A stretch of DNA of 64,000 nucleotides from Candidatus Iainarchaeum sp. (GCA_021158055.1 JAGGVJ010000040.1:4114-68113), one strand, 5' to 3'; numbered from the stretch's first letter, positions 1,654-41,300 are shown. The notes: generated from the letters alone by a model not told the origin. Translations and numbers: made by a program.

Positions 1654-2640
1654 TTATCTTGCGGACCTTGCCATTCTTTCAAGAGCATTTTTTCTTGAAA
1701 TCGAAAATGATTGCGGGTCGTTTTTGGAAACCCTTATTATTTCGTTTGCCAATGCTTCCGAGGCGGTTGTCTTGCTTTTGAATGATTCTGAAAATCCTGC
1801 CAAAGCAATGTTTTTTATTGCCTCGTCAACTCTTCGGAGCGGCGCAACATCAACGCTTTGCTGCCGGCTTATCCCTCCGAATCTTACCACAGTTATGTCT
1901 TCCCTCGGTCCTGCGTTTTCGATTGCGTCAACGTAAACCTGTATCGGGTTGATTTTTGTTTTTGCGTAAATCATGTCAAAGGCACTTTCCACAATAAGTA
2001 TTGCTTTGAGTTTTTTGCCTGTGTTGTTTCTTCCGCGGATATATTTTCCTTTCAGTTTCCTTTTTCCCTGTCCGCTTCTCATGACTTTGTTGACAAGCCT
2101 TTCGACAATGTTGAGTTTTGCTTTCCGAAATTGCTTGTCGCCTGTGTACCTGCCGTGAGTGTGCGGGATAACAACGCTGTCAAGACCGACGTAATTTTGA
2201 AGGCTTACATCGTGAACATGCACTTCTGAAAAATCGTATTTGTGAAAGAGCCTTGAAGTAAATGCAAATTCAGCTGTTTTTTCGCTCGGTTGCACGTCGT
2301 CATGTGACTCAACTGGTTTTTTTGAAGGTTCTTTTGAAACCTCTGACTTGTCTTTGGTTTCGCCTGCTTTTTTTTCCGCGGCTTTACTGGCATCGGGCTT
2401 GTTTTTACCAGCTTCTTTCGCTGGTGCTTTGCCGGCGGATTGTTTTACTGTTGATTCGCTGGCTTTTGTCTTGGCTTCCAATTCCTGTTTCACTTCCGGC
2501 TTCTCCTTTACTTCCGGCTTTGAATCTTCCGCCATGCTTTCCCCGGCTTCCGGCTTCTCCTTTACTTCCGGCTTTGGCTTTTCTTCTTTTGTTTCTTTTG
2601 TTTTTTTCTCAGCCTTGTCTTCTTTTAACTGTTCAGCCAT
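1654..2640 (-). CDS. rps7: 30S ribosomal protein S7 (uS7) with ~125-aa K/E/P-rich N-terminal extension
   Basis: 328-aa ORF. The C-terminal ~200 aa (FHKYDFSEVHVHDVSLQNYVGL...VRFGGISRQQSVDVAPLRRVDEAIKNIALAGF...) are uS7-like. The N-terminal part is low-complexity KPEVKEK/KAEKK repeats. The start lies 5 bp from the S12 stop. Confidence 0.85.
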   Translation of the reverse strand: MAEQLKEDKAEKKTKETKEEKPKPEVKEKPEAGESMAEDSKPEVKEKPEVKQELEAKTKASESTVKQSAGKAPAKEAGKNKPDASKAAEKKAGETKDKSEVSKEPSKKPVESHDDVQPSEKTAEFAFTSRLFHKYDFSEVHVHDVSLQNYVGLDSVVIPHTHGRYTGDKQFRKAKLNIVERLVNKVMRSGQGKRKLKGKYIRGRNNTGKKLKAILIVESAFDMIYAKTKINPIQVYVDAIENAGPREDITVVRFGGISRQQSVDVAPLRRVDEAIKNIALAGFSESFKSKTTASEALANEIIRVSKNDPQSFSISRKNALERMARSAR

Positions 2641-9801: not shown

Positions 9802-11291
9802 TCTTCCTCACCCTGCCGCAAGTCAAATTTTACATTTTTTTCCATTAGAATTTTTTCCACATTTTCTGAATTTTCCTCTGTAGAAATTTCCACAGTCAGA
9901 CCAAGGCTTTTTACAAGACCGCAGTTCGGCCCTTCAGGCGTCTCCACGCAGCAGATTCTTCCCCAGTAAGTTGCGTGAAGGTCTCTTGCCTCGTAGTTGG
10001 GGCGGTTTTTTGAAAGCGGTGATGTAACACGCCTTAAATGTGATATTGTCGCAAAATTGTTTGAGCGCTCAAGAATTTGCGAAACCCCGTTTCGCTTGTT
10101 TGTCCACTGCCCTGTGCTCATTGCAATCCTGATTCGCTCTGTCAGCGCGTCGGGACGCACAAGGGTTTTTATGTTCTTGAGTTGTCTGCTTCTTGCAGAC
10201 GCTCTTTCAACCTGAAACTTGACGTCTTTTTTGAACGTGTTGAAAGCTGTTCTGAAAAGGTCATCCATGAGTTCCCCTGCCATCTTAAGCCTCTTATTTG
10301 CATAGTGGTCCTTGTCATCTTCTTTTCTTTTGCCGCAGTCAAGGTCTATTGCTTTTTCTATCATGCGGACAATGAAAAACGCTTTTTTTATCCTGTCTGA
10401 TTTTTCACCGCCGATGTGGGGGAGCAAGTACTTGTCAATTAAATCCTGTGCCCTTTGCATCCTGTAATCCTGCGGCTGCCCCGGTGCCGCCCATTTTCCG
10501 ATGTGGTCGATTGCCTCATCAACTGTCTGGGGGATAACCCCCTCAAGATTCAAGAGCACGTCGTTGACGTAAACTTTGTCGTTTTTGAACGCGTTGAGAA
10601 TATCCTGGTCGGATTCTATTCCAAGCGCTCTTATGAGTACAAACGGATTGAGGTTTTTGGGGCTGAGCGGGAAAGAAATCCTGAATGTTCCTGTTTTCCT
10701 TTTTTCAATGTAAATTTTTGTGCGGTAACCCTGCCTGACAGAAATCGCTTTTGCAGTGATTACTCCGCTTGCCTGCCTGTCGACCATTACCCTGTTCGGG
10801 GCGAGTTCTTCCTGCATGACAAGAACTTTTTCGTTTCCGTTGATAATAAAATATCCGCCTGAATCGTCCGGGTCTTCTTTTGCATCTATGATTTCTTCGC
10901 GTGTTTTTCCGTGGAGGTGGCACAAATTTGATTTGATCATGACCGGGAGTTCTCCGATGTATACTTTTACCGGTTCAATTTCTTCTCCTTCCTGAACAGG
11001 GGTCATTTCAAGAAATACGGGTGCGGTATATGACCTGCTCCTTATCCTTGCCTCCATGGGAGTTATGTCTCTTTTTGAACCGTCTGCTTCAAAAGTCCTT
11101 GGTTTTTCCAGGCTGATCCTGCCCATTTTAACCACGTAGTTGTCAATGTTCGGTTCAATCAGGTTTGACTCGTCAACAACTCTTTGCAGTTTTTTGCTGA
11201 TGAACTGGTTGTATGAATCCAGATGAAACTGGACAATTTCTCTTGCGTCAAAAAATGACTCAAGCAATGGTTTAGTGTTCATTAACCCCAC
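9798..11291 (-). CDS. rpoB2: DNA-directed RNA polymerase subunit B'' (Rpo2N, N-terminal half of split B)
   Basis: 497 aa, homologous to the N-terminal region of Rpb2/RpoB. It sits between rpoH and rpoB', the canonical position in archaea with a split B subunit. Confidence 0.9.
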   Translation of the reverse strand: MGLMNTKPLLESFFDAREIVQFHLDSYNQFISKKLQRVVDESNLIEPNIDNYVVKMGRISLEKPRTFEADGSKRDITPMEARIRSRSYTAPVFLEMTPVQEGEEIEPVKVYIGELPVMIKSNLCHLHGKTREEIIDAKEDPDDSGGYFIINGNEKVLVMQEELAPNRVMVDRQASGVITAKAISVRQGYRTKIYIEKRKTGTFRISFPLSPKNLNPFVLIRALGIESDQDILNAFKNDKVYVNDVLLNLEGVIPQTVDEAIDHIGKWAAPGQPQDYRMQRAQDLIDKYLLPHIGGEKSDRIKKAFFIVRMIEKAIDLDCGKRKEDDKDHYANKRLKMAGELMDDLFRTAFNTFKKDVKFQVERASARSRQLKNIKTLVRPDALTERIRIAMSTGQWTNKRNGVSQILERSNNFATISHLRRVTSPLSKNRPNYEARDLHATYWGRICCVETPEGPNCGLVKSLGLTVEISTEENSENVEKILMEKNVKFDLRQGEEE

Positions 11292-11309
11292 CCTCTAGTG
11301 TAATTTATC

Positions 11310-11549
11310 TTATCTGGCAACTCGCCTATAATAAACAGACTCGCCGGCTGTAATGCTTTTGCGAGTTATCCTGAGAACCTGTCCTTCTTCAGTATCCAAT
11401 GCCACAACTACCGGGTCATTGAGTTTTATCAACGGAAACTGTTCTTTTTTTATCCCGAATTCTTTCAAAAGAGATTCGACTTCTTCTTCACTTAAAATTT
11501 CGTGTTTCGGTACTAAAACATGGTTTAAAAGGTCTTCTGCAGTTTCCAC
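11310..11549 (-). CDS. rpoH: DNA-directed RNA polymerase subunit H (Rpo5)
   Basis: 79 aa (METAEDLLNHVLVPKHEILSEEEVESLLKEFGIKKEQFPLIKLNDPVVVAL...), typical RpoH size and sequence. First gene of the operon. Apparent GTG start preceded by a GGAGGA RBS. Confidence 0.85.
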   Translation of the reverse strand: METAEDLLNHVLVPKHEILSEEEVESLLKEFGIKKEQFPLIKLNDPVVVALDTEEGQVLRITRKSITAGESVYYRRVAR

Positions 11550-11826
11550 GGAATTTCCTCCAAAAAAAGACTAACATTGCAAATGCATGTCACAAAACTG
11601 CGCACTGTATACTCCGGCACGCGTTTTTAAAAAAATGGTTCAACAAATTAAGAACGTACTAACAATACATTTATTATAATATTTATTCATTTCGGTAAAT
11701 GACTAAACCATCTCTACAAACACTCGGATAATACACCGGAAAACTTTTTTGAACAAGTTTACAGTTTTTAGCCTGCATTTTCACATCTGTCTGCCTTTAT
11801 GCTGTATTGCAACTCTTTCTGGTTGC

Positions 11827-11910
11827 CTTGTAATTCTTTTAGTTTGTCTTGTAATTCTTTTAGTTTGTCTTGTAATTCTTTTAGTTTGTCTTGTAATTCT
11901 TTTGGATTGC
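11827..11910. repeat. 21-bp direct tandem repeat (cttgtaattcttttagtttgt) x ~4, upstream of rpoH operon
   Basis: Seen directly in the sequence. An ORF translating to LVILLVC repeats (11749..11943) is an artefact of this repeat. Confidence 0.9.
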
Positions 11911-11948
11911 CTTGAACAAATTGCCATTTCGGAACTTTGCTAAAATAC

Positions 11949-12063
11949 TGGCGCCCCGGTCGGGATTTGAACCCGAGTCACAAGCTTACTGCCTGTAATT
12001 GAGCCGACAGGCGTATGCAACCAAAATGGTTTTTGCATCCTGGGCCACTAGACTACCGGGGCA
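11949..12063 (-). tRNA. tRNA gene with intron(s); isotype unresolved
   Basis: On the minus strand there is a perfect 7-bp acceptor (GCCCCGG/CCGGGGC), discriminator G, encoded CCA, a D-arm (GTCT-AGTGGCCCA-GGAT) and a T-arm (TCGGG-TTCAAAT-CCCGA). About 59 nt lie between D- and T-arms, so 30-40 nt of intron. I could not fold a canonical anticodon arm by eye. Confidence 0.5.
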
Positions 12064-12356
12064 TTTAAAACAACAAAATTTCAATATCAAAAAACCTTAA
12101 AAAACTAATTGCAAGCTCAAATTAAAAGTTGAACATTCCAGTTATCCTAAAATTAATTTGTTCAAATCTAATTCGTTCAAATCAAATGTTATTAAATTGT
12201 TAAAAAAATTTAATTACATTTACTACCCTTAATTCAATGTCGTTAAATTTATTTAAACCTATTCTTGAAAAATTCACCCGCAAGTTAATTCGAGCTCTTT
12301 ACCCGCAAGTTAGTTTGATTAACTTAATTACTCTTGTTTAGATGATGTTTGAATAA

Positions 12357-12800
12357 TCACTTTCTTTTGTTTAAAAATTCTTTTATGTCAACAACAACTT
12401 TTTTTACCCTTAAAACCATATCAAGCACGTTTTTTTTGTTTTTTTCAAAGTCCCTGCAAAGCTTTTCTTTCTCTTCTTTTGGAAAAGCTGTTTTTTTGCC
12501 TGAAAGCACTTGCGCGTTTATGATGACTTTTGCCTGGGCAAAATTAAAGCAAAACTCGTCAAGATTTATTTTTTGAGTGTCGCAGTCAAAGTTGAGTTCA
12601 AAAAGATACTTGTTTATTTCAAGTGAAACGTGCGAACCCATCTCTTCATGATAACCTTCAACAATCTCCGTTGCACTTGCAAGAAGTTCTTTCAACTCAT
12701 TTCCTGCGTTGTGGCCAAAGCCAAACTCTTCAAAAACTGCTTTTTCAACCTTTTCACTTATGTTCAGTTTATCGCTCATGAAACCCTTCTCCCAAAACAC
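12357..12800 (-). CDS. Hypothetical protein (147 aa)
   Basis: Intact ORF between two tRNA genes. No recognisable motifs. Confidence 0.4.
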   Translation of the reverse strand: MFWEKGFMSDKLNISEKVEKAVFEEFGFGHNAGNELKELLASATEIVEGYHEEMGSHVSLEINKYLFELNFDCDTQKINLDEFCFNFAQAKVIINAQVLSGKKTAFPKEEKEKLCRDFEKNKKNVLDMVLRVKKVVVDIKEFLNKRK

Positions 12801-12837
12801 AGTTTATCAAAACAAAACATTGCATATCAAAAAACAT

Positions 12838-12940
12838 GGTAGCCCCGGAGAGATTCGAACTCCCGCCACCAGCTCCAAAGGCTGGCATACTTTTGTGGGT
12901 CAATGCAGATGCATTTGGCTGGCCACTATACTACGGGGCT
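12838..12940 (-). tRNA. tRNA-Gln (UUG) with ~29-nt intron at a non-canonical position in the D-loop region
   Basis: Acceptor AGCCCCG/CGGGGCT, A73, encoded CCA. Anticodon arm CCAGC-CUUUGGA-GCUGG. T-arm GGGAG-TTCGAAT-CTCTC. The extra sequence (CCAGCCAAATGCATCTGCATTGACCCACAAA, with hairpin AATGCA/TGCATT) interrupts the D-loop between AGTGGCC and GTAT-G26. Confidence 0.7.
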
Positions 12941-13088
12941 TTAAAAATTGTGTCCTTATATCTGAAATCTCTTATATATTATACAATTAAAGTAATTAAT
13001 AACATATCTATTACAACAACCCAAATTAACCAAACCAACCACCCCCAAACCAGGCCAACGCAAAATCAACACACTTAAAATATCTCAA

Positions 13089-14408
13089 ATGAATATATCT
13101 AACATGGTCAATCAACCCGAAGTCAACCTGCCTGAAAAAGAGCAGCTTAAAGAACTTGTGAAAAAATACGGTTCGCCTCTTTTTGTTGTAAGCGAAGCAA
13201 AAATCATTTCCCAGTATTCAAAATTAAAGCGCGAGTTTTGCGCCCTTTACCCGAACACAAAAATCGCGTACGCTTACAAGGCAAATTACCTTCCTGCAAT
13301 ATGCGACCTGATAAACCGCGAAGGCGGCCTGGCCGAAGTCATCTGCGGGTTTGAATACCAGATAGCAAAAATAGTGGGGGTCAAGGGAAGCGACACTGTC
13401 ATAAACGGACCATACAAACCAACAGAAGAACTGGAAGACGCCATAGAGTGCAACTGCATGATTAACGTTGACAATTTTGACGAGCTGAAACGAATCAACG
13501 AAATCGGCCTCAAAAAAAACAAGCAAGTCAACATCGGGATAAGAATCAACACAAAAATCTGGCACCTTCTCTGGAACCAGTTCGGGTTCAACATCGAATC
13601 AGGCGAAGCGTTTAAAGTCGCCGAAACCATTCAGGATGACTTTTCAAACCTGAACTTAACAGGAATACACATTCACATCGGCACAAGTTTAACAGACGCC
13701 GGACTATATGAAAAATCTGTTCTGGCAGTTATTTCCTTTATAAAAAAACTTGAAGGCGAACTGAAAATTGAAATAGAATACATTGATTTGGGCGGGGGGT
13801 TCTCTTCAAAGGGAACCTGCCCCGCAGACAAATCCCTTGAAGAATGGAGCGTTCCAAAAACAGAAGACTATGCAAAAAAAATATGCGGCCCGTTAAACAA
13901 ATTTCCCGGGGATAAAAAACCGTTGTTGATACTTGAACCCGGGCAGTACATGGTTGACGAAGCAGTGGTCCTGATTTCATCAGTTGTCGCGGTAAAAAAC
14001 ATTTTCGGGATCAGGTCACTGTTCTTGGATGCGGGAATAAACATTTTGCCTTCTGCGCTTTACAGAAAACACCTGGTAAAACCGTTAACAGCAAGCCAAA
14101 GCAGCGAAGAGCAAGAAAAAGAAATCACTGACATTTACGGCCCTCTTTGCATGAGCATCGACCTGCTGGAAACAGGAGTGATGCTGCCAAAACTGCAGGC
14201 GGGGGACTTGCTGGTGATTCACAACGCCGGGGCTTACGAGATGTCAAGGTCGACCCAGTTCACAAGACCACGGCCGGCAGTCGTCAGTGTGGACAAAAAC
14301 GGAAAAATACGGCTGGTTAAAAAACGAGAGACCATAAAAGAAATCCTTGCATTGGACAATCTGAAACCAAATGACCCGGGGAAAAATACTTTTTGTGATG
14401 AACAATGA
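13089..14408 (+). CDS. PLP-dependent decarboxylase, Orn/DAP/Arg decarboxylase family (fold III; LysA-like)
   Basis: 439 aa. N-terminal PLFVVSEAKI...YAYKANYLPAICDLINREG (Lys in the AYKAN PLP site) and C-terminal EPGQYMVDEAVVL...GAYEMS, typical of diaminopimelate/ornithine decarboxylases. Confidence 0.75.
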   Translation: MNISNMVNQPEVNLPEKEQLKELVKKYGSPLFVVSEAKIISQYSKLKREFCALYPNTKIAYAYKANYLPAICDLINREGGLAEVICGFEYQIAKIVGVKGSDTVINGPYKPTEELEDAIECNCMINVDNFDELKRINEIGLKKNKQVNIGIRINTKIWHLLWNQFGFNIESGEAFKVAETIQDDFSNLNLTGIHIHIGTSLTDAGLYEKSVLAVISFIKKLEGELKIEIEYIDLGGGFSSKGTCPADKSLEEWSVPKTEDYAKKICGPLNKFPGDKKPLLILEPGQYMVDEAVVLISSVVAVKNIFGIRSLFLDAGINILPSALYRKHLVKPLTASQSSEEQEKEITDIYGPLCMSIDLLETGVMLPKLQAGDLLVIHNAGAYEMSRSTQFTRPRPAVVSVDKNGKIRLVKKRETIKEILALDNLKPNDPGKNTFCDEQ

Positions 14409-15454
14409 CAAGCCAGATCTGCGTCGGAGTCACCGGAATCAAAGTGACAACAAGCCCTCAAACCGGTTTCGGTGTGGCAAGAAGCCTCAAGGAATCCGGG
14501 CACGGTGTTGTTGGAATTTGCGAAACAGCTTTGACTTCCGCCATCTGCGCACCGTATTTTGACAGCGTTTACGCGCTTGATTCAATTTATTCAGAAGACA
14601 TTGACGGTTTCATAAAAAAAATAACAAAAATACAAAAAGAAACAAACCTGAAAGTTTTTATTCCGTGTTCCGACAGCGAAATTTATTTTTTTGAAAAATA
14701 CAAAAAAAGGCTGCTTGAAAACAACATCAAGACATTGCTCCCGTCACTTGAAAGCTTAAAAAAAACATCAAAACTGTTCCTGCACAAATTGTCAAAACAC
14801 GGTTTAAACGTGCCGAAAACAATAATTGCGTCTTCAGAAGATGACTTGGAAAAAGTAACAAACGAACTTGATTTTCCGGTTGTCTGCAAGGGAATTTTAA
14901 AAGACAGCTATATCGCAAGAGACAAAATTGACCTTCTTATTTATTTCAGGAAAATCAATGACATGCTTCACGGGGGAAAAGGAAGAATCATTTTCCAGGA
15001 GCATATCAAAGGCGATTTTTACTGTTCAACAGGCGTTGCCAACCGCAACAGCGAGCTTGTCAGGTGCCTGAACATGAAAAAGCTCGGGATTGACATCAAC
15101 GGTTCAACCTGGGCTGGAATGACTATCAAAAAAGACACTTTAACTAAAATATCGGAAAAAATGGTTAAAGCAGTCAACTGGGTCGGCCCATTTGAACTGG
15201 AGTTCATAAAAGACAATGACGGCAAGTACTGGTTATTTGAAATAAACCCGCGCCTGCCGGCGTACATTTACCTTGCGACTGTTTCCGGGCAAAACCTGCC
15301 CAAAGCAATTGTTGATCTTGCGCTTGAAAAAAACGTGAAGCAAGATTTCTCTTTCAAAAAAGACCTGGTTTTTACCAGATTGAGTGAAGAAGTCGTTTAT
15401 CCAAAAGAATATCTTGACAGTTTGGATAACGGCAAGCTTCCGCAGTTCCAATGA
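14405..15454 (+). CDS. ATP-grasp domain protein (carboxylate-amine ligase-like)
   Basis: 349 aa. WLFEINPRLPAYIYLA (the ATP-grasp EINPR motif). Its start overlaps the decarboxylase stop (ATGA). Confidence 0.7.
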   Translation: MTSQICVGVTGIKVTTSPQTGFGVARSLKESGHGVVGICETALTSAICAPYFDSVYALDSIYSEDIDGFIKKITKIQKETNLKVFIPCSDSEIYFFEKYKKRLLENNIKTLLPSLESLKKTSKLFLHKLSKHGLNVPKTIIASSEDDLEKVTNELDFPVVCKGILKDSYIARDKIDLLIYFRKINDMLHGGKGRIIFQEHIKGDFYCSTGVANRNSELVRCLNMKKLGIDINGSTWAGMTIKKDTLTKISEKMVKAVNWVGPFELEFIKDNDGKYWLFEINPRLPAYIYLATVSGQNLPKAIVDLALEKNVKQDFSFKKDLVFTRLSEEVVYPKEYLDSLDNGKLPQFQ

Positions 15455-15831
15455 AACAAAACAAAAAAACTATTCAGAAGTTTCAAAAAGCAATTCTTCT
15501 GCAACTGTTTTTTTGCACTCGCTTTGCGTGTTTTTAATATAACTCGGCAATTTTCTGATTATGCTTTTTCCAATTGCAATTTCCATTAATATTTCATCAC
15601 TTTTCATATCAACCACCACACTTCAGTGAACAATTGTTCACCTGCAGCCGCCGGTCCGCAAAAGAAACAACAACCGCAAACCCAAGCATAACAATTATTG
15701 CATAATTGTCATTAATAAATGTAACTTCCGCAGTGTTTGTTTAAGGTGCATGACATTGGTGTTGTTTAACACGCATGACATTAATTATCACCAAATCAGA
15801 CAGGGAAAATCCAAACTGTTCAAAAAAGAGG

Positions 15832-15936
15832 TCGGAAGGGAGGGAGTCGAACCCTCAACCGCTCGGTTTTTGTTTTATGCGCGTTTGTTCGCGCGTCGAT
15901 CTACAGCCGAGTGCTCTTCCATTGAGCTACCTTCCG
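15832..15936 (-). tRNA. tRNA-Tyr (GUA) with ~33-nt canonical (37/38) intron
   Basis: C1:G72 acceptor (CGGAAGG/CCTTCCG) and A73, the archaeal Tyr identity. D-arm GCTC-AATGGAA-GAGC. Anticodon stem CTCGG/CCGAG with loop CUGUAG|intron|A. T-arm GAGGG-TTCGACT-CCCTC. CCA is not encoded. Confidence 0.85.
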
Positions 15937-15971
15937 AAAAACAAAATTAAGTGTTTTTAAAGTCCTTTTTC

Positions 15972-16083
15972 TGGTGGGGCCACGGAGATTTGAACTCCGG
16001 TTACGGGCTGTTTTGCTTAAACGAACCTTTTGATTCGTTTTGTCCCAAAGCCCGAGTGATAGACCAAACTACACTATGGCCCC
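15972..16083 (-). tRNA. tRNA-Pro (UGG) with ~34-nt canonical intron
   Basis: Acceptor GGGGCCA/TGGCCCC, A73, encoded CCA. Anticodon stem CGGGC/GCCCG with loop UUUGGG|intron|A (G37). T-arm CGGAG-TTCAAAT-CTCCG. The D-stem has only 3 clean pairs. Confidence 0.7.
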
Positions 16084-16178
16084 TTTAAAAATCATTTCCA
16101 GAAAAATCCACTGCTTGCTGTTATTAATACTGCAAAACTGCCTAAAAGAGTTTACTGTAACTTTTATTATTGACCATT

Positions 16179-16325
16179 TGAAGTTTAAAATTATTCCTTT
16201 GCAGTTTAAAATTATTCCTTTGCAGTTTAAAATTATTCCTTTGCAGTTTAAAATTATTCCTTTGCAGTTTAAAATTATTCCTTTGCAGTTTAAAATTATC
16301 CTCTTCAATCCCGCTCACTTTTTAA
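16179..16325. repeat. 22-bp direct tandem repeat (gcagtttaaaattattcctttg) x ~6.5, immediately downstream of the tRNA-Pro 5' end
   Basis: Perfect copies with no intervening unique spacers. ORFs reading KIIPLQF repeats on both strands are artefacts. Confidence 0.9.
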
Positions 16326-16329
16326 CTGC

Positions 16330-16821
16330 TCACTTCTTTTTTCTTGACCCGTACCTGCCTGATTTTTTGACAAGAACTTCAAGCTTGTTGTAATCAATCC
16401 TGACTTTTGTTTTTTCAAGCGCCCGCCTGACCGCGTATGTCTTGCAGACTTCTTTGAGCGTGTTAATGTCTTTTTTTTCCATTTCAAGCCCAAAAGTAAG
16501 CTCGTTTATGACTTTTCCCACTTTCGGGCCCTGCGCTGAAGAAAGCGCTTTCGCAATTTCCTCTGAAGTGAACCTTCCTTTGTCTTCCGGAATCATTTCA
16601 TTGATTTCCGCGTCAATTTTTGAGGTGTCAACAAGTTTTGCAATGGATTCGCTTGTTTTTCTGTCAAAGCTGTCTGAAACGCTTGCGAAAAACCTTATGA
16701 TATCGAGCGGTTCCGTATTTTCATCACAAGTTATTTTCTTTACCGCAACCCAGTCACCGTATTTTGCAAGAAACTGGATGCTGTCCTTTTGTTCTTTTTG
16801 TTTCAAGTCACTGTCTGGCAA
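16330..16821 (-). CDS. Hypothetical protein (163 aa), possible winged-helix-like
   Basis: Intact ORF with apparent TTG start after a GGAGGG RBS. C-terminal basic tail. No confident family assignment. Confidence 0.45.
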   Translation of the reverse strand: MPDSDLKQKEQKDSIQFLAKYGDWVAVKKITCDENTEPLDIIRFFASVSDSFDRKTSESIAKLVDTSKIDAEINEMIPEDKGRFTSEEIAKALSSAQGPKVGKVINELTFGLEMEKKDINTLKEVCKTYAVRRALEKTKVRIDYNKLEVLVKKSGRYGSRKKK

Positions 16822-16980
16822 AAATATCCCTCCAAAACCAATGGCAAAATTAACACTAAAAAATGCATTGCACTAAAAATATGTCACAAAACTGCACTAA
16901 AAAAATATATTACAAAACTAAGTTGCTCCACATTAAAAAGACATACTCAAAAAACACTTAATGCCTTGAAAAAAACCATT

Positions 16981-17083
16981 TGGAGCCCCCTGCGAGATTT
17001 GAACTCGCGACCTACTGATTACAAGTTACGACCAAAAGCAGTTGGCTTTTGTCAGTCGCTCTGGCCAGCTGAGCTAAGGGGGC
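16981..17083 (-). tRNA. tRNA-Thr (UGU) with ~26-nt intron at non-canonical position (31/32 or 32/33)
   Basis: Acceptor GCCCCCT/AGGGGGC, U73, CCA. D-arm GCTC-AGCTGGCCA-GAGC. Anticodon stem ACTGA/TCAGT. Between the stems the only splice leaving a 7-nt loop with U33 gives CUUGUAA (anticodon UGU). The intron forms hairpin CAAAAGC-CAACT-GCTTTTG. Confidence 0.7.
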
Positions 17084-17287
17084 AAACAAAACAGACAATG
17101 CAGTATTCGCTGAAAAAATCAATAAACAACTTCAGTAAATAAATAATTACAAAATAAAAATGTAATCATTAAATGGATTTTATTGTTTAAAATCATTGCT
17201 GATTACCTGCAAAGCTAAACTTTTTTATTTAAAACATGCATTATTATTGCTGTTGCTTTAAACGTGCCAAAAAAACACTTTATTGAA

Positions 17288-17452
17288 GCCGGGGTAGCTC
17301 AGTTGGTTAGAGTGCTAGACTCATAAGTTTCATTCTTATGAGTGATGACCTTCAACACACGCTCGCTTGATTGCGGGTGTCTTGCGGGAATGACAAAAAA
17401 GATGCACTGGGAAATCTAGATGTCGAGGGTTCAAGCCCCTCCCCCGGCACCA
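17288..17452 (+). tRNA. Elongator tRNA-Met (CAU) with ~88-nt canonical intron
   Basis: GCCGGGG-TA-GCTC-AGTTGGTTA-GAGT-G-CTAGA-CUCAUA|intron 17326..17413|A-TCTAG-ATGTC-GAGGG-TTCAAGC-CCCTC-CCCCGGC-A-CCA. G1:C72 and a non-GGG anticodon stem indicate an elongator. Confidence 0.85.
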
Positions 17453-22562: not shown

Positions 22563-25500
22563 TCAGGCAAGTTCCACGTTGTATTTCCAGCTGCACTTTC
22601 CGTTTGCAGGAATGCACGCCTGAATATTGTAAATTCCCGGCGGGACAACAACAAACACCTGACCGCCTGCCCCCGTGAACGGGCCGAACTCTTCAGAATC
22701 ACTCACCCTCACTGCCTCGGCAGTTACCTCGCCTGAGTAAAGAGCCGAGCAATCTGTTACAGTAATCTTGAACCGAGAATAATAGCTCACATCCCACGAG
22801 TCAAGGCTCGGGGTGCTTCCGGAAGTGAAATTTGCCTTCAGTTTAATCGGGACGCTCCCGACCGTTGCTGAAATGTTCTGCCCGTTTTGAACATTTGAAA
22901 TCAAAACATTGTCATCTGACGCTTTCAAAACATCAACTGTAAGGATAGAGTTTCCCGGCGTGGTCTTTGAAAAAGTTATTACTCCCCACTTGCTGAAATT
23001 CACGGGGTCAATCGCAGGCGTGGTGAAACTCCCGCTTGACTGCGTGCCTGAAAGAACCACGCTCTCACCAGACAACTCCGTGTCTGAATAAGCTCCGTCA
23101 GACAAACTCAAACTTACAGTTGCAAGACCTGAATCATTCACAAACACAACTTCAGTAAACTCACCGCCCCAATAAGTGCCATCGCTTGCCTTTGCTTTGA
23201 TCTGCCACAAACCAGGCTCCCCAACAGCAGTGAAAGAATAACTGCCTGAACTTTGAACTGCAGGGTTCAATATCTCATTTCCCAAACCATCCAAAACCCT
23301 AAAGTCATACTGAACAATCGGGTCGCCGTTCGGATCAATCGCGGTGGCAGCCGCCTCAACTGCGTCCCCAAGTTCAAACAAAGCCAAGTTAAGCGAAACG
23401 TCTGTTATCACAGGCGCCCCAAACTGCTCCTGCGCACCCAAACCGACTGCCGGTTCAGAAGAAGCGTATTTTCGGATAAGGATGTCATCCCAGTAATGCT
23501 GACCGGTACTCGGATCATAACCTATGCTCATCCTTACCTTGTCTATTGAAGATGCTGCTGATGTGGGGAGGTCATTGCCCTTTACCTGACCGCTTATTTT
23601 AATAAACGGATATCTGTCATTCACGGTATCAAAAGCCAATTCAATTTCATACCATACATTTGCAGACCATAATGTATCAACGGGCAAATTTACACGTCCA
23701 GTGTCTGCCTGATATTTAAAATGACCGTCCTGATGCATTGTTATGCCTAAATAATTATTGCCTGCATCAGATTCCCCGACAAAAGTTCTTGAACCCCCTG
23801 ATGTTCTCCTCATACGAACTTTTAAGATGCCGGTATCAAAATCCACTGCTTTATTAACGCCGCTTTCAGGATAACCATCATGGCTCGCTGCTCTCAAGCC
23901 CCCGTAAACAACACTGCTTTGCACGTCAATATCATTCTGACCAACCCACCCTCCTTGACCGTTCAAATCCCCTGCATTGTAGTTTTCAAAATCATCAAAA
24001 AAATCAAATGTTTCCATGCCGTTGCTCACACCCCCCGCAACCGGATTACCGTAATACATGTAAATATCTGTGGAACCGTTCGCAGGAATGCTTGGGACCT
24101 TTACCCAAACCTTCGTGTCCGCAGTGTTGCACCCGGACTCAATCCAGTAACTCAGCTCATGTGTCCCGGAAACATCAGTAAACCTCAAATCACTGCAATC
24201 ACTGCACATTGCACCTGCAGAAACCAACGACTCGGAATCAAACTCAACCAACACCTGAAAATCAGTCAGATCAGAACCGCTCAACTCAGCCATGGTAATC
24301 GGTTTCCTGTACAGCCAATCAGAACCCCACCAGCCGCTGACAATAACGCTCTCACTGAAAACACTACTTTCGTGACCGTCAACATCAACCACTGTCACTT
24401 CAACAGCCCATGTTCCCGCGACATCGGGAGTGAAAGAATACTCACTGCCTGCCGGGGTTACGGGACCTGCGAATATACTTCCACCAGGGCTTTTTACAGT
24501 GAAAGAATAACTCTCAATCGTTCCAACTCCTTGCGGGTCATCTGCAGTGGCGGTTGCTGTCACACTTTGACCTATTTCCAAAGAAGCGGGGTTGAACAAA
24601 ACACCTGTGACAAAAGGACCGTCTTCCTGTTCTTGATCGCCCAGAATTACTGTCGGTTCCTGAACAATGTTAAGAGCCGAATAATTCCTGACAAACACAT
24701 TGGCTCCCTGATGGGCATTCTTATAATCTATATGTGGGCTGCCGGCGTAATACTCACCGTAAACAATCACCCCGACGTGGTTACCTACAGAAATCCATGG
24801 GTCCTCCGAATTCGCGCTCCTGAAATACCAGCGGTACTGCGTGGGCGACGCTGACTGGGATGATTTTTTCACGTTCTTCAAGGCATTTGAATAACAGCAG
24901 ACAATTTCCGACGGGTAAGTTATCAGCCAGTGGGAATAATCCCCTGTTGAAAGCAAAACCTCATCATAAGAAATACCACTGAAATTCATGTAAAAATCAG
25001 ATGACGCAGTAATATCCGGGACATAAGTTCCGGAAGAGTGATTCGGCTGCAAGTTATAATTCCACGAAGCCCAACCCCCTACGTCGTCGTTCCTGATTAC
25101 AAAAGTCCAGCCGCCGCCGTCCAACGACATGTCACAATAAACCTGAAAAGGAACACCATCCGGATCAATCCAGTAAACACCATCCATTGAAGAACCATTG
25201 CTGCGGACTTCCGTGCAGGACTTCCCAGCGGGAGAGACATCTGAACCGAAAACAACGGATTCCAGACTTGCGCTATCTGCAAGGGCATTTCCGTAATACA
25301 TGTAAACAACTGAAGAAGAATCCCCTGATATAACAGGTATCTCAACCCTCACTTTCGTGTCTGGAGTATTGCAGCCGGACTCAATCCAGTAACTTAATTC
25401 CTGAATACCGGACATATCCGCAAATCTTAAGTCGCCGCAATCATCTTTCATAGCTCCTGAAGAAATCAGGGACTGGGAATCGAATTCAACTAAAACACCA

Positions 25501-28364
25501 TAATCAGTCAGATCAGAACCTGAATTTTCATTTATTGTGATTGGTTGCCTGTACCTCCAATTAGAGTTCCACCAACCAACCACCTGCACCTGCTCAGAAT
25601 AAACATTGCTTGTGTGTCCATCACCATCTGTTGCAGTAACGCCCACAGACCAATACCCCCCCTCATCAGGAACAAACGAGTAAGTGTTGCCTGCCTGAGT
25701 CACCGGACCCTCAAACACGCTTGAATCAGGCTTTTTCACAATAAAAGTGTAACTTGAAATGTCTTCCGGGCCCTGCGGGTCACTCGCAGAAACAGCCACA
25801 GTCACTGACTGCCTTGACTCTGGAGAAATCGGGTCAAAAGAAACGCCGGTAACACACGGCCTACCGCTCTGCTCCTCGCCGCCAACACTTAAAACCGGCT
25901 CGGCGGAAGCGCATTTGGCGACAAAGAATTCGTCAGCATATCGCGGCCCGTAATCCCAAGCCGCAAGACCCACCTGACCGGCACCCGTTATCTTTGAACC
26001 AAGATCAACTGTTGTTTTATAATTCCCATTAAGCCACACTTTTGCCGAATTACCTGATACACATGTCTCAACTATATTCCAGTCAGATGTGACATCGCCA
26101 CTTGCAAAATGCCCTAAAACACTGTTACTACTGCCATTCCAGTAAAGCATATCCATTTCACTTCTTGGAGAATCTCTTACAGAAAGCCAATACAATTCTC
26201 CCGTTCCAGATTGCCTCCTGAAAGCCAAAGCTACATAGTCAGAACCCCCTGTTACTTTAAGCTTTGCCCGCAGCCTCAAATCCGCGTAAGAAGACCCAGT
26301 GACATAAGTAGTGGCAGTCATATCCTCATGCGTAGCCGGACCGTTATACACCCCATCTGAAACCGCCCATTTACTATTTATATCAGTCCACGCATCCTCG
26401 TTCTCAAAATCATCAAAAAATTCAAAAACAGCGTCACCATCGCTTGCGCTCTCCGCTTCATCGTTTCCATAGTAAGCATAAATTGTCTTTGTGTCATCTG
26501 CGGGAATTTCAGGAACCTTCACCCAAAAAGTTCCGTCTTTTTCCTGCCAGTAAGGAAAAGACGCAGCCCATTCAGATTCTTCAAAACTGGCTGAATCAGT
26601 AAACCTGATATCATCATAGTTTGGCTTTGCATTTGCGTCGTAGTGGGCTTTGATTTCATCGGGGGAAAGAGCGCGGTTGTAAATGCGGACTTCGTCGATG
26701 AATCCGTTGAAAGCAGTTCTGATATTATTATCCCCTTCATCATACCACGCGCCAATATACTCTGAATAATTCCCTGCAGGAAATCCAAATGTTCCACCGC
26801 CCACAGCATCTTCGACACCGTCTATATACAATTTTGTGGAAGAAATATCCCAGGCCACTGCAACGTGCGTCCAGACACCATCAGCCAACGGCTGTGCAGA
26901 ATACAAACTTGTAACGGAACCGTAATTATCAGTGATCTTAACTTTGTTTATATCCGCACCACTCTCCTCCACAGCAAGACCAACGCTGTAGTTCATTGCT
27001 CTTTGTTTCATGAAGAGACCCGGATCATAACCCGTTGTCTGAACACCATCACGCTTTACCCACATTGATATAGTCCCCGTGATTGTCGGCAGAGCCTGAT
27101 AAGGCACGCTCACTCTGGAAGCCGAAGTACTAGTCGCACCATCAAAATACCCGCAATAGCCATGTTTACCACCTGAATCCCGGGAAAAATTACCTGCTGC
27201 TGTTCCACTATGCTGGTTTCCACTTGCATCTGCAACGCTTGTTCCGGATGTTCCGTCCATATGCCAGCTTGCGACCAAACCGGTCTCGTCATAAACCGGG
27301 TTCTCCACCTTTACCTGATAATCAGTCAAAGCAGAACCACCGGTGTTGTCGATTGTGATTGCTTTCCTGAAAGAATAAGTCCTGTCCGACTGCTCAGAAC
27401 TGATGGTAGTTGCCGGCTCGGGGGAGGTATATTTGCGGACATAAATCCAATCCACATATCCAGTGCTGCTTGGTCTCTGATGCAAAAAAATGTGTCCTGT
27501 TGTGTATATAGGCGTTCCCGTCAATTCACCAAGTTGCGTACTATCATCATCTGCATAAGCTTTTACTGTAGCTGACCCAGACGAGGGAATCCATAACTTC
27601 CCACGATACCATGTATCTGAAACTGGGTCAGTTGCTGATTTCGTAGCCCCCCCGCCAACATAAAGAGCGAAATTATCGTCAATTCTTGTCGAAAGTTTTT
27701 CTTTCGATGTTCCTTGTGCTTTTGACCCTTCCGAGCCTAAATATAGTTCGCATGGCTCTGTTCCAACTACCTTAAGTCTTGCTTCGATTGCATATCCATT
27801 ACTGAAGTTTTGCTGAGAATTTAAACAATCTGAAAATGTAAAGCCTCCATCCGAAAGTGCAAGAAGACCACCTGAAACACTATATAATCCGTGATTATTG
27901 CTTACCCATTTATTTGTCCAATCTAAAGAACTACTAAAATCATCAAAAAACTCAAAAGTACCCGGTCCGCTACTCGCACTCACAGCAACCGGATTGCCGT
28001 AATACATATGGATATCAGTTGAACTGCTTGCCGGAATGCTTGGAACCTTCACCCACGCTTTTGTATTTGCAGTATTGCACCCGGAGTCAAGCCAATAACT
28101 CAACCCTTGCGCTCCGGAAACGTCACTGAACCTCAAATCACTGCAATCAAGATTCATCTTCCCGGCAGAAACCAAAGATTGAGAATCAAACTCGACCAAA
28201 ACCTGAAAATCAGTCAAATCAGAACCTGAAGAATCAGTAACAGTGATTGCTTTCCTGTACTCCCAGTTTGAGTCCCACCAGATTCCCGCTGAAAAAACAG
28301 GGGACAAAAAAAGAACAACAGTTAAAAAAACAAATGATTTAGTCAACGCATTCAAAAGCAACAC
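22563..28364 (-). CDS. Giant secreted surface protein (1933 aa) with three DUF2341-like + LamG/ConA-like lectin + PKD-like units
   Basis: N-terminal signal peptide MLLLNALTKSFVFLTVVLFLSPVFSAG. A W-x-YRK-ITI...LTDFQVLVEFDS...DLRF...LSYW(I/L)ESGCNT..TKVWVKVP...IYMYYGN unit (the DUF2341 pattern) occurs three times. LamG-like blocks and PCVTGVSFDPISP/PFVTGVLFNPASL PKD-like modules are present. DNA-level repeats mirror the domain triplication. Confidence 0.8.
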   Translation of the reverse strand: MLLLNALTKSFVFLTVVLFLSPVFSAGIWWDSNWEYRKAITVTDSSGSDLTDFQVLVEFDSQSLVSAGKMNLDCSDLRFSDVSGAQGLSYWLDSGCNTANTKAWVKVPSIPASSSTDIHMYYGNPVAVSASSGPGTFEFFDDFSSSLDWTNKWVSNNHGLYSVSGGLLALSDGGFTFSDCLNSQQNFSNGYAIEARLKVVGTEPCELYLGSEGSKAQGTSKEKLSTRIDDNFALYVGGGATKSATDPVSDTWYRGKLWIPSSGSATVKAYADDDSTQLGELTGTPIYTTGHIFLHQRPSSTGYVDWIYVRKYTSPEPATTISSEQSDRTYSFRKAITIDNTGGSALTDYQVKVENPVYDETGLVASWHMDGTSGTSVADASGNQHSGTAAGNFSRDSGGKHGYCGYFDGATSTSASRVSVPYQALPTITGTISMWVKRDGVQTTGYDPGLFMKQRAMNYSVGLAVEESGADINKVKITDNYGSVTSLYSAQPLADGVWTHVAVAWDISSTKLYIDGVEDAVGGGTFGFPAGNYSEYIGAWYDEGDNNIRTAFNGFIDEVRIYNRALSPDEIKAHYDANAKPNYDDIRFTDSASFEESEWAASFPYWQEKDGTFWVKVPEIPADDTKTIYAYYGNDEAESASDGDAVFEFFDDFENEDAWTDINSKWAVSDGVYNGPATHEDMTATTYVTGSSYADLRLRAKLKVTGGSDYVALAFRRQSGTGELYWLSVRDSPRSEMDMLYWNGSSNSVLGHFASGDVTSDWNIVETCVSGNSAKVWLNGNYKTTVDLGSKITGAGQVGLAAWDYGPRYADEFFVAKCASAEPVLSVGGEEQSGRPCVTGVSFDPISPESRQSVTVAVSASDPQGPEDISSYTFIVKKPDSSVFEGPVTQAGNTYSFVPDEGGYWSVGVTATDGDGHTSNVYSEQVQVVGWWNSNWRYRQPITINENSGSDLTDYGVLVEFDSQSLISSGAMKDDCGDLRFADMSGIQELSYWIESGCNTPDTKVRVEIPVISGDSSSVVYMYYGNALADSASLESVVFGSDVSPAGKSCTEVRSNGSSMDGVYWIDPDGVPFQVYCDMSLDGGGWTFVIRNDDVGGWASWNYNLQPNHSSGTYVPDITASSDFYMNFSGISYDEVLLSTGDYSHWLITYPSEIVCCYSNALKNVKKSSQSASPTQYRWYFRSANSEDPWISVGNHVGVIVYGEYYAGSPHIDYKNAHQGANVFVRNYSALNIVQEPTVILGDQEQEDGPFVTGVLFNPASLEIGQSVTATATADDPQGVGTIESYSFTVKSPGGSIFAGPVTPAGSEYSFTPDVAGTWAVEVTVVDVDGHESSVFSESVIVSGWWGSDWLYRKPITMAELSGSDLTDFQVLVEFDSESLVSAGAMCSDCSDLRFTDVSGTHELSYWIESGCNTADTKVWVKVPSIPANGSTDIYMYYGNPVAGGVSNGMETFDFFDDFENYNAGDLNGQGGWVGQNDIDVQSSVVYGGLRAASHDGYPESGVNKAVDFDTGILKVRMRRTSGGSRTFVGESDAGNNYLGITMHQDGHFKYQADTGRVNLPVDTLWSANVWYEIELAFDTVNDRYPFIKISGQVKGNDLPTSAASSIDKVRMSIGYDPSTGQHYWDDILIRKYASSEPAVGLGAQEQFGAPVITDVSLNLALFELGDAVEAAATAIDPNGDPIVQYDFRVLDGLGNEILNPAVQSSGSYSFTAVGEPGLWQIKAKASDGTYWGGEFTEVVFVNDSGLATVSLSLSDGAYSDTELSGESVVLSGTQSSGSFTTPAIDPVNFSKWGVITFSKTTPGNSILTVDVLKASDDNVLISNVQNGQNISATVGSVPIKLKANFTSGSTPSLDSWDVSYYSRFKITVTDCSALYSGEVTAEAVRVSDSEEFGPFTGAGGQVFVVVPPGIYNIQACIPANGKCSWKYNVELA

Positions 28365-28488: not shown

Positions 28489-28581
28489 TGGAGCCCCCTG
28501 CGAGATTTGAACTCGCGGCCTCTACCTGTTTGGTTTGAAAAAATTACCAAGGTAGCGCTCCACCGACTGAGCTAAGGGGGC
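28489..28581 (-). tRNA. tRNA-Thr (GGU) with 17-nt canonical intron
   Basis: Acceptor GCCCCCT/AGGGGGC, U73, CCA. D-arm GCTC-AGTCGGTG-GAGC. Anticodon stem CTACC/GGTAG with loop UUGGUA|intron|A. T-arm GCGAG-TTCAAAT-CTCGC. Confidence 0.85.
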
Positions 28582-38388: not shown

Positions 38389-41300
38389 TCATTTAGCAAA
38401 TCCTCTTATGAACTCAACAATTATTTCATCCAATTCATCTTCACAGGCATCCAATTCCAGACCCTGCCCACTGTTTATAAAACATATCTCCGGCGGTCTT
38501 TCATCACCATAATCCTTATCTTCGCACACCGGTCTTTCGTCTGAACCCATACTGAATATCAACCCCGTGATTATCAACTCACTGGTTGGACTCAAACTGT
38601 CATCTTTGTTTCTCCTGACTACTTTTACCGGCGTTACTGTATTTGTCTTTCCGATGTCTGACATTTGCTTCCCGTCAATACTAACGTCTCCTTCAAGTAT
38701 TTTAAGATACTTTCTCTGAATGTTTTCTACAACTTCCTCTGAACTGCCTTTTACAACCACTGAAACTTTCTGGCCTGTTCCCGCGGGAGCAGAAGGATTC
38801 CAACTCATGATTGCAAAAATTCCGTCGTATTTATTGATAAGATTCACTACTCTTAAACACGCGCTTTTATAGGCATCATCTTCCTTTTCACAACGGTTTT
38901 CATCAAGATTTTCCCCTACATACCTTGCAAACAGATTAAATTGACTGTTACCGGAGGCACGCGACGGTGAAAGATTTCCTGCCAATCCCTCAATGCCCTC
39001 AATCCCAGCTGTGTTGGAGTATTCAACATCAAACATCTCCTCAAAAGGCAAGCTGTATGTTCCTTTCTGCACGCCGGAACCGTCACTAAGCGGCGCAAAA
39101 AACAACGGGAAATACTTCGGCAGGTTTATCACGCCGAAATTGCAGTTGTAAGTGGACTTGCTGTCAGCTTCCTTTCTGTCAACTTTTACGATATAGCTGT
39201 TTTCACCATCCCTCGTGTAAATCCTTTTCCAGACACCGCAGGACATCTTTTTCGGACTAACCTCAAATTTGATTGACGTCGGGCCTGGACTGCTTATGTC
39301 ACTTCCAACAACAAAAATTTCCTTGTCCCAGCTTAAAAGTTTAAGGCGCGCAGGAGAAATTCCCCCGAGTTTAAACGGGGATTCCCCCCGATCATCTCTG
39401 AACACACCCAATGCAAGAGACATAATCCCATTGTATTCCTCATCTGTAAAAGCAAATTTAAATTCATTCTCGTGAATATTAGCTCTTTTCAAATTTCCGC
39501 CATCCAACGGAGAACTGAAAAGGAAAAGATACAATTCGTTCAAAAGCTTGAAAGTTGTCTGGTCGCAGTAATGCGTGTTGCATTCCCTGAACAGTTTGGA
39601 AATGTCTTGCGCTGAAAACCCTGAAACTTCACTGCCGTCGTCGTCAACAATTATTTTGTTTCCGTTGAACATCGCAGCAACTTCGCTAAACCCCCTGCTG
39701 TCTTCTTTCACCTTGAAATTGCCGCCCGAGGTTTTCTCAACCGGCTGGTCTTCCAGTGCTTCTTCCCCGAAAATCGTGGCGAAAAGAGAGTCGTATTCAA
39801 TAGTGCACTCTGTTCCGATTACGTTCACCCTGAAATCTGCAATCTTATTTTCAGGTTCGCTGAATCCTTCAAGAAGCTTTGTTTCACCCCGACCGACAAA
39901 AGTTTCAGAAAGGTCATAACCGTAATTGGTTGTGCCGGAAGTCGTCGAACTCTCAAGGAAACGAACTCCCTGCTTTCCTTTGTTCTGCGCCTTCAGCCCT
40001 TCTTCGGAGTTGATGAAAATAAGTGTCGAGTTCAGGTCAGAGCAATTCAGATATTTCTTTTTAAAAACATGGCTGCACTCTGTAGCCGCTTCACTTTCTT
40101 CTTCTCTTTTCATGCTGTATTCTATGCTGAACTCTTCTTCACTTTCACCGAAACTGACAAAAAGAAGATCAGATTTCCCGGATTCAATAATCACATCCTT
40201 GTCAGTCCCTGCGAAATTCGGATTTTTCGTTATTGTGACTTCTGCATCTGACTTGTTGTCAATAAACAGGCCGCCCAGCGAGTCGCTCAACTCAAACGAT
40301 ACCTTGTCGCACAGCTCGCTTCCGTAGACACAACCGTCGTCACGGTTAACGTTCACGGTTACTTTTTGTTTCGGGGCAGTTTCTTTTGATTCGCCGATGT
40401 AGATTGCAAGCACCCACTTGCCGTTGTCGTCAGTCAAATCGTCACTCACTTCCGCTTCCAGTTCAAACGTCTTTGCCTCGTCAATCAACAGTTTGTGTTC
40501 CTCGCTGAACTCTTCAAGAACTCCTTCTTTTTCAGCTTCTTCGTCATCGCCGGTAACTATCTCAAGAATCGTTGCAGTGGCCAAACCCTTGTCTGATCCT
40601 TCCTCGTCTTCACCCGGCAAAAGCTTGAAATACAGGTCAATGGCGTCTTCTGAAATGTTTTTCAAATCAAACTTGATTGACTCTGTTTTTTTGTCCTGCA
40701 TGCACATGTTGTCAAAAGAAATGCTTTCAATGGAGGTTTCAGTGTTTTGCTTGAGCACTTTCACGTAACTTTGCCCGCTTTGCGGTGAAATGCTCACTGA
40801 AACAGGCAAAGTGGCTTCAACAGGTTCGCCTGAACAGTCAACTGTAAGAACATACTGCCCTGAAACAGCCAGATTGCCTGTTATTGCCTTTTCTTTGTCT
40901 ATTTCCGCCACAAGTTCAATGTCTGTAAGCGCGCTGCTTTTGTCAGTCCATTTTGAAAACGCTGTTTCAATGTCCCCTCCGGAGCTTTTGCTTCTAAGCA
41001 ACACGTTCAGCTCAAAATCACCCGCGACAGTGTCGCCGCTTAAAACAATGAATTCCTGGCCTGAAAACGAACTGATGTTGCAGGAACAAACAGTTTCTAT
41101 TTTTATCCCCTGCAGTATTTTTGACCTGTTGCCGGAATCAAGCAAAAATTCTGCTTCCTGATCGCCTGAACCGTAAGATATCCTGAAGCAGTCGGAAGAA
41201 CCGTGCGCAGTCACTTTGAACGGCAGGGTTGTAATATGCAGCTTGTTGTCGCTGTCTGATTTGCCTGCAACGAAAACATATCCTTCAAAGCTTGGATCAC

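Follow-up and report, generated by a model that had tools for sequence, protein, structure and literature searches.

In archaea that have an (alpha-beta)2-type tRNA splicing endonuclease EndA, up to 87% of the tRNA genes are disrupted (PMC3239211), and in Candidatus Micrarchaeum acidiphilum ARMAN-2, a member of the DPANN group with an epsilon2 EndA, the disrupted fraction is 56% (Fujishima et al. 2011, PMC3239211). Raised levels of tRNA gene disruption have also been described in DPANN lineages with an L3-loop-bearing alpha4 EndA (PMC5829648), and trends in the co-evolution of tRNA gene disruption and EndA have been published (PMC3239211, PMC5829648). According to reviews, a tRNA gene may hold as many as three introns (PMC4090602, PMC4033280); they also list 20/21, 29/30 and 30/31 as known non-canonical intron positions (PMC4090602). 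In Aeropyrum pernix, the D-loop intron of pre-tRNA-Thr2(UGU) is removed by EndA alone, as determined experimentally, and the intron of Thr1(CGU) lies at 37/38 (Hirata et al. 2011, PMC3241643). We found no account of tRNA introns specific to the Diapherotrites in the searchable literature. Here we analyze a 64-kb stretch of DNA from Candidatus Iainarchaeum sp. (GCA_021158055.1 JAGGVJ010000040.1:4114-68113; henceforth "the window"), in which all seven tRNA genes are interrupted, by eight inserts in total. It is very probable that these, and two further genes on the same scaffold, are functional archaeal tRNA genes carrying protein-spliced introns of the bulge-helix-bulge (BHB) type.

The locus shares much with the systems described above. 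As in ARMAN-2, the host belongs to the DPANN group, a high fraction of its tRNA genes bears introns, canonical as well as non-canonical sites are used, some tRNAs have two introns, and both strict and relaxed BHB motifs occur; its non-canonical introns are found at 29/30, at 30/31 and in the D-loop, whereas the ARMAN-2 examples shown have them in the T-loop (PMC3239211). As in the Thermoproteales and other Crenarchaeota with an (alpha-beta)2 EndA (Sugahara 2008; PMC4033280, PMC4090602), a single gene can carry two introns, one at 37/38 and one at a non-canonical site, and positions 20/21, 29/30 and 30/31 are among the hot-spots of the crenarchaeal multiple-intron genes. In contrast to these organisms, the host here is of DPANN type with a moderate G+C content (about 44%), and not a hyperthermophilic crenarchaeon. 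Similarly to A. pernix, Thr isoacceptors of one genome have introns at different positions, but here the D-loop intron resides in tRNA-Gln and the Thr(UGU) intron at 30/31 in the anticodon stem. Removal of the A. pernix D-loop intron provides a precedent for that predicted for tRNA-Gln.

Gene structures and intron positions

With default settings (no intron search), ARAGORN detected none of the seven tRNA genes in the window. Rfam recovered four of the seven, as tRNAs 90-109 nt long that all bear a large insert in the anticodon region, and missed the Asp and Gln genes. When introns were allowed, ARAGORN reported seven genes (coordinates in Table 1), and a regular-expression scan for T-arm motifs (5-bp stem, TTCRANY loop) found exactly seven of them, one per gene. 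Since the seven T-arms match seven complete genes, no orphan tRNA pieces are present in the window; split or permuted tRNA genes are ruled out there, all genes being colinear and none leaving orphan halves. The anticodons that ARAGORN assigned in its free-intron mode were unreliable, with Tyr for example being called Phe-AAA and Thr being called Ser, and therefore we parsed the genes by hand and then tested the parses. In-silico splicing converted all seven into intron-free cloverleaf tRNAs with the expected anticodons and a restored 7-nt anticodon loop (scores 117-124, a range that also holds for the two flanking genes described below). The identity features of the spliced products fit the lineage (C1-G72 in Tyr, U73 in Thr, G73 in Asp, A1-U72 in Gln), and the 3' CCA is encoded in six of the seven genes.

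A first-pass annotation of positions 11949-17452, whose span starts at the 3' end of the first gene and stops at that of the sixth, had counted seven tRNA genes in the window, six of them with introns and some of these at non-canonical sites. The number of genes was correct and the picture of intron abundance was slightly understated, as every gene is interrupted. Five of the eight introns occupy the canonical 37/38 site, including those of Tyr, Pro, Met and Thr(GGU), for which this position had been proposed. The other three are non-canonical. The gene at 11949-12062, which had been left unassigned, is tRNA-Asp(GUC), a colinear gene with two separate BHB introns at 29/30 and 37/38. Its naming is independently supported by synteny: a tRNA-(Tyr)-Asp-Lys cluster lies directly upstream of rpoH-rpoB in many archaea (loci L008, L019, L023, L036, L051, L080 and L082), and the gene sits in the Asp slot of this arrangement. 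The insert of tRNA-Gln is indeed in the D-loop, although it measures 28 nt rather than the proposed 29 or so. For tRNA-Thr(UGU), the first-pass annotation had considered 31/32 or 32/33; junctions at 30/31, 31/32 and 32/33 all yield the same spliced product, so the proposed tRNA stands, but a BHB is formed at 30/31 only. The tRNA body of this gene is nearly identical to that of Thr(GGU).

The tRNA(CAU) gene has the G1-C72 pair and lacks the G-C run of initiator type; from this reading of the sequence it is probably of elongator Met type, with tRNA-Ile2 as the alternative. The Tyr gene lies 36 nt downstream of the Pro gene (15830-16083, - strand), and because of this short spacing, with no T-run in between, the two are probably co-transcribed.

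Table 1. Interrupted tRNA genes, their introns and other features of the window and of the adjoining part of scaffold L085. H, h and h' denote the 4-bp, outer and inner helices of the BHB motif; the last column gives the number of shuffled introns, out of 5000, that reached the observed pairing
Feature	Position	Strand	Description	BHB motif	Shuffles
tRNA-Asp(GUC) gene	11949-12062	-	CCA encoded; exons 12033-12062, 12005-12012, 11949-11986; spliced score 123.4		
Asp intron 1	12013-12032	-	20 nt, 29/30 (anticodon stem)	strict hBHBh'; H 4/4 (AUGC/GCAU), h 4 bp, h' 4-5 bp	0
Asp intron 2	11987-12004	-	18 nt, canonical 37/38	strict with short flanking helices; H 4/4 with one G.U, h' 2 bp	146
tRNA-Gln(UUG) gene	12837-12940	-	A1-U72; CCA encoded; spliced score 122.1; unspliced Rfam only 26.2 bits		
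Gln intron	12893-12920	-	28 nt, D-loop (about 20a/20b, "20/21" class)	relaxed; H 4/4 (GUGG/CCAC), h = D-stem after A14.A21 mismatch beside 3' bulge, h' 4/5 pairs	359
tRNA-Tyr(GUA) gene	15830-15936	-	archaeal C1-G72; only CC at 3' end; Rfam 58.7 bits; spliced score 124.4		
Tyr intron	15868-15900	-	33 nt, 37/38	relaxed; H 3/4 (C32.A mismatch), h 5 bp, h' one pair, then imperfect stem with 5-bp GC helix	629
tRNA-Pro(UGG) gene	15972-16083	-	CCA encoded; Rfam 49.2 bits; spliced score 120.4		
Pro intron	16010-16043	-	34 nt, 37/38	near-strict; H 4/4 (UUUG/CAAA), h 5 bp, h' one pair, small internal loop, 9-bp hairpin	502
tRNA-Thr(UGU) gene	16981-17083	-	U73; CCA encoded; Rfam 54.7 bits; spliced score 120.6		
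Thr(UGU) intron	17027-17052	-	26 nt, 30/31 (anticodon stem)	strict hBHBh'; H 4/4 (CGAC/GUCG), h 3 bp, h' 7 bp	0
tRNA(CAU) gene, putative elongator Met type	17288-17452	+	CCA encoded; spliced score 117.5 as tRNA-Met(CAU)		
Met intron	17326-17413	+	88 nt, 37/38	strict with short flanking helix; H 4/4 (CUCA/UGGG), h 5 bp, h' 2 bp	185
tRNA-Thr(GGU) gene	28489-28581	-	at 28.5 kb, beyond the span of the first-pass annotation; CCA encoded; Rfam 59.1 bits; spliced score 121.4		
Thr(GGU) intron	28528-28544	-	17 nt, 37/38	strict hBHBh'; H 4/4 (UUGG/CCAA), h 5 bp, h' 3 bp	9
tRNA-Ser(UGA) gene	L085 16532-16662		two introns, 29/30 and 37/38 (Asp architecture)		
Ser 29/30 intron			22 nt	relaxed, without outer helix; H 4/4, h' 6	
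Ser 37/38 intron			22 nt	relaxed; H 3/4, h' 5	
tRNA-Asn(GUU) gene	L085 17916-18008		one 18-nt intron at 37/38	strict	
Archease	L085 18079-18507		PF01951, 134 bits		
RtcB-type 3'-phosphate RNA ligase	L085 18581-20023		PF01139, 608 bits, full length		
S7 gene	1654-2640	-	328 aa, S7 domain at residues 158-328		
21-nt tandem array	11823-11914		4.4 copies		
Micro-ORF	about 15470-15607	-	41-45 aa		
21-nt tandem array	16177-16299		5.9 copies		
Giant ORF 1	22563-28364	-	1933 aa		
Giant ORF 2	38389-44628	-	2079 aa		
Giant ORF 3	45260-53557	-	2765 aa		

For the motif analysis we used the standard archaeal geometry, with an outer helix h, a 4-bp helix H flanked by 3-nt bulges that are cut after their second base, and an inner helix h'; the strict motif is written hBHBh', and hBH and HBh' count as relaxed forms. 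It was calibrated on Thr(GGU), which fits the canonical motif perfectly, and the calibrated geometry also picked out Asp 29/30, Thr(UGU) 30/31, Met, Asp 37/38 and the Gln D-loop. Enumeration of equivalent junctions allowed only 29/30 for the first Asp intron, only the D-loop for Gln, and 30/31 to 32/33 for Thr(UGU). Overall, the BHB folding that the first-pass annotation had proposed as a check came out in its favor, as the junctions sit in strict or mildly relaxed motifs.

Each intron was then shuffled 5000 times with the exons, and hence the junction forced by the tRNA, held fixed, and scored on the pairing of H and h' (Table 1). Unconstrained minimum free energy (MFE) folding recovered the full BHB of the first Asp intron, H and h' of Thr(UGU), and H of Gln. 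A low-threshold BHB scan over all junction pairs was noisy (25 matches, as compared to 12.5 ± 3.7 in shuffles), and therefore we put weight on BHBs at junctions that are independently forced by the mature tRNA.

The same pattern continues outside the window. On L085, a 155-kb scaffold that extends beyond its left edge, the flanks we reached (~18 kb, for about 82 kb with the window) contain two more tRNA genes, for Ser and Asn, so that nine of nine genes are interrupted. Together these genes hold 11 introns, of which seven occupy 37/38, two 29/30, a single one 30/31 and another the D-loop. No gene that was split, permuted or interrupted three times was seen in the window and flanks reached.

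Conservation and alternative explanations

Loci of the same organism in other assemblies were reached through the cluster members of its RpoB'' protein, and one relative with about 91-95% DNA identity (L001, GCA_030592315.1) was found to share the Asp and Gln genes, introns included. The Asp gene is identical in this relative. Across the two genes, 0 of 152 exon positions and 2 of 66 intron positions differ, as compared to 74 of 480 (15.4%) in the intergenic DNA and 6.1% in the neighboring open reading frame (ORF); at the intergenic rate, the exon count has a probability of 9e-12 and the intron count one of 0.001. Both intron changes fall in the h' helix of Gln, one turning a C.A mismatch into a C-G pair and the other an A-U pair into G.U, so that pairing is restored or kept, and h' in the relative has 5/5 contiguous pairs. 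These changes, together with the constancy of the exons, argue against pseudogenes and support the D-loop register of the Gln intron. Judging from the substitutions, purifying selection is acting on both the exons and the introns of the Asp and Gln genes.

Several points weigh against reading all these inserts as BHB introns of functional genes. The Tyr motif is imperfect, with H at 3/4 and a weak h'; in Pro, h' has a single pair before an internal loop; and the second Asp intron has an h' of 2 bp, with a 6-bp hairpin competing with its motif in the MFE structure. The Met BHB does not appear in the MFE structure of its precursor, where a 9-bp hairpin between anticodon and intron (ACUCAUAAG/CUUAUGAGU) is preferred, sequestering the anticodon and the 5' splice site. 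The mature splice junctions are predicted ones, and a search for EndA (PF01974/PF02778) among the ORFs of the window and in the flanks reached found none. A single close relative supplies the comparative support, for the Asp and Gln genes only, and moderately diverged relatives with the same island were not found by the scans we made. A single-protein RpoB'' scan of the GTDB species representatives returned no relative; an alignment-based scan of the same set returned 80 loci, none above about 51% identity, which served for the Tyr-Asp-Lys-rpoH synteny and as background. Scanning JGI metagenomes with the Thr(UGU) exons around a variable gap gave no matches, a DUF2666-anchored metagenome scan gave only homologues of 40-43% with no tRNAs nearby, and relatives of the ATP-grasp gene (55-68%) showed a conserved operon without flanking interrupted tRNAs.

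The alternative that survives best, and still an improbable one, is that some introns, and above all the one of 88 nt in Met, have been retained for a second function, as a box C/D guide RNA or as a modification determinant, and are not neutral passengers. Introns of tRNA-Trp in the Euryarchaeota encode C/D guides. The Met intron stands out by its length, forms 9 bp with the anticodon loop and carries a C-box-like GUGAUGA directly after the 9-bp hairpin, and introns of this locus are more conserved than intergenic DNA. However, a box C/D RNA should have a C box (RUGAUGA), a D box (CUGA) and guide regions of about 12 nt inside the intron, and since the Met intron has no CUGA it is not one: we rejected this candidate, as a regular-expression scan of the whole window turned up no complete C/D arrangement and Rfam gave no snoRNA-like match at this intron. 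The conservation of the introns is already accounted for by the constraints of the BHB.

It is less probable still that Asp, Gln and Thr(UGU) are decaying pseudogenes with junk inserts. The Rfam tRNA model does miss Asp and gives Gln a poor score, and ARAGORN in its standard mode finds nothing; yet removal of the inserts leaves perfect cloverleaves scoring 120-123, no shuffle reproduced the strict BHBs of the first Asp intron and Thr(UGU), exons and introns in the relative are conserved against strongly diverged flanks, and tRNA-Asp occupies its ancestral slot upstream of rpoH. Cloverleaf products, BHBs, conservation and synteny thus largely refute this reading.

We give even less credence to the view that every intron truly lies at 37/38 and that the non-canonical positions result from mis-parsing. 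In its free-intron mode, ARAGORN does put all inserts within the anticodon loop or close to it, assigning the odd anticodons Lys, Phe, Ser and Ser, but these parses are wrong or implausible, making a Phe-AAA of Tyr, a long-armed Ser of Thr, and a Lys with a broken stem of Asp. For Thr(UGU), as we read the sequence, no placement at 37/38 yields both U33 and a 7-nt loop; the Gln insert cannot be in the anticodon loop because it is located 5' of the 3' strand of the D-stem; and no positions other than 29/30, 30/31 and the D-loop agree with the BHB geometry.

Least probable of all is that the inserts are assembly or chimera artefacts, as the metagenome-assembled source and the varying copy number of nearby tandem repeats might have led one to suspect, since all six island genes are base-for-base identical in independent assemblies from other samples (one of which, L002, matches window positions 1-21036 at 99.99% and differs only in tandem-repeat copy number) and the diverged relative has two of the genes with the same introns. 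Self-splicing group I introns, which have a ribozyme core of at least 200 nt detectable as Intron_gpI, are ruled out by the size of the inserts (17-88 nt) and the lack of any match to an Rfam intron family at gathering or E-value threshold.

Proposed splicing pathway and order

Protein-spliced BHB introns in functional genes, the interpretation we favor, would be processed as follows, by analogy with the established archaeal pathway. Each gene would be transcribed as a precursor, with Pro and Tyr probably on one transcript, and at every exon-intron boundary the RNA would fold into a BHB with two 3-nt bulges around the 4-bp helix. EndA would cut both bulges after the second base, with a 2',3'-cyclic phosphate and a 5'-OH as the resulting ends, and the exons would be joined by RtcB, aided by Archease. 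The genes for Archease and RtcB adjoin each other directly downstream of tRNA-Asn (L085 18079-20023), about 5.4-7.4 kb left of window position 1, and the ligation half of the tRNA-splicing pathway is therefore close to the tRNA genes.

In the two-intron genes Asp and Ser, splicing is probably ordered, with the 29/30 intron removed before the 37/38 intron, because the former splits the anticodon stem, and the 37/38 BHB has this stem as its outer helix. According to the predicted structures, this helix has 2 bp in the primary transcript and extends to the 5-bp anticodon stem once the first intron is removed.

A broad-specificity EndA is a reasonable supposition in view of the published co-evolution trends (PMC3239211, PMC5829648). 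Of the non-canonical introns in the window, two out of three (Asp 29/30 and Thr(UGU) 30/31) have strict 3-4-3 BHBs, and so the argument for such an enzyme draws on the relaxed motifs (those of Tyr, of Gln on its 3' side and of the two Ser introns) and on these trends, and not on intron position alone.

Host lineage, neighborhood and significance

The window is archaeal, encoding a split RpoB (RpoB''/B'), RpoA'/A'', RpoH, L30e, NusA, S12, S7, two PurP paralogues and PolB; the organism also has an aEF-2 operon, and the ATP-grasp protein of the organism is recorded by NCBI as belonging to a Candidatus Diapherotrites archaeon (DPANN group). Together with the BHB junctions, these marks support the core of the first-pass annotation, that of protein-spliced archaeal tRNA introns, several of them non-canonical, in an intron-rich lineage. 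Among 5.8 billion proteins, none outside its own species cluster exceeds 54% identity to RpoB'', the best named matches being to Micrarchaeota and Diapherotrites (about 50-54% to any entry of either), and with the ceiling of about 51% among GTDB species representatives this points to a very thinly sampled lineage. The RpoB'' ORF as read here has 497 aa, and the recorded gene has a different start.

Upstream of rpoH (11291-12062), only the Asp gene is left in the tRNA slot; there is no tRNA-Lys, and one of two 21-nt tandem arrays fills the gap between tRNA-Asp and rpoH. The other array lies about 94 nt upstream of tRNA-Pro and has a TATA-like TTTTAAA box in each unit on the tRNA strand; array copy number varies between assemblies of the same organism. 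The conserved micro-ORF (MEIAIGKS..RK.PSY.K...EE.LFE) adjoins 13089-15454 and accompanies a PLP-decarboxylase and ATP-grasp gene pair both here and in relatives of 64-68% identity (L095, L096); its product might act as a LysW-like carrier or be the precursor of a peptide. The S7 gene, called identically in four assemblies, has an N-terminal extension of about 157 aa. Three giant ORFs together occupy about one third of the window, as is typical of surface proteins in DPANN archaea. LamG domains and four DUF2341 repeats are present in the first, inside which one assembly (scaffold_27) breaks; the second has CarboxypepD_reg domains, and the third has no Pfam match on record.

With respect to ARMAN-2, the host belongs to a different deep lineage, as the RpoB'' identities indicate, and the local interrupted fraction (9/9) is higher than the 56% there. 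Treating genes as independent, a rough approximation, nine interrupted genes of nine would be expected with a probability of about 0.005 at a rate of 56% and of about 0.29 at 87%. By eye, the introns have no obvious sequence similarity to each other, and therefore nothing suggests recent intron transposition. Every feature of the locus has a published precedent, and its novelty lies in lineage and density; it reveals no new mechanism, and is a tidy, real example of a known archaeal phenomenon.

In practice, the locus matters mostly for annotation. Since standard tRNA finders fail on such genes, automated annotation of DPANN metagenome-assembled genomes of this kind will report missing tRNAs, and may thereby underestimate genome completeness or invent odd decoding. 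As a tentative suggestion, and one we hold to be rather less than likely, this Diapherotrites-labelled lineage might have at least 90% of its tRNA genes interrupted, with recurrent 29/30 plus 37/38 double introns, served by an uncharacterized EndA variant; if true, this would exceed the maximum of roughly 87% in (alpha-beta)2 archaea and the ARMAN-2 figure. From an almost unsampled DPANN lineage, the locus adds resolved cases to the data on co-evolution of tRNA disruption and EndA architecture: positions 29/30 and 30/31 with BHBs of the strict form, an intron in a D-loop, and two genes with double introns. These two genes give a testable prediction, that the 29/30 intron would leave before the one at 37/38.

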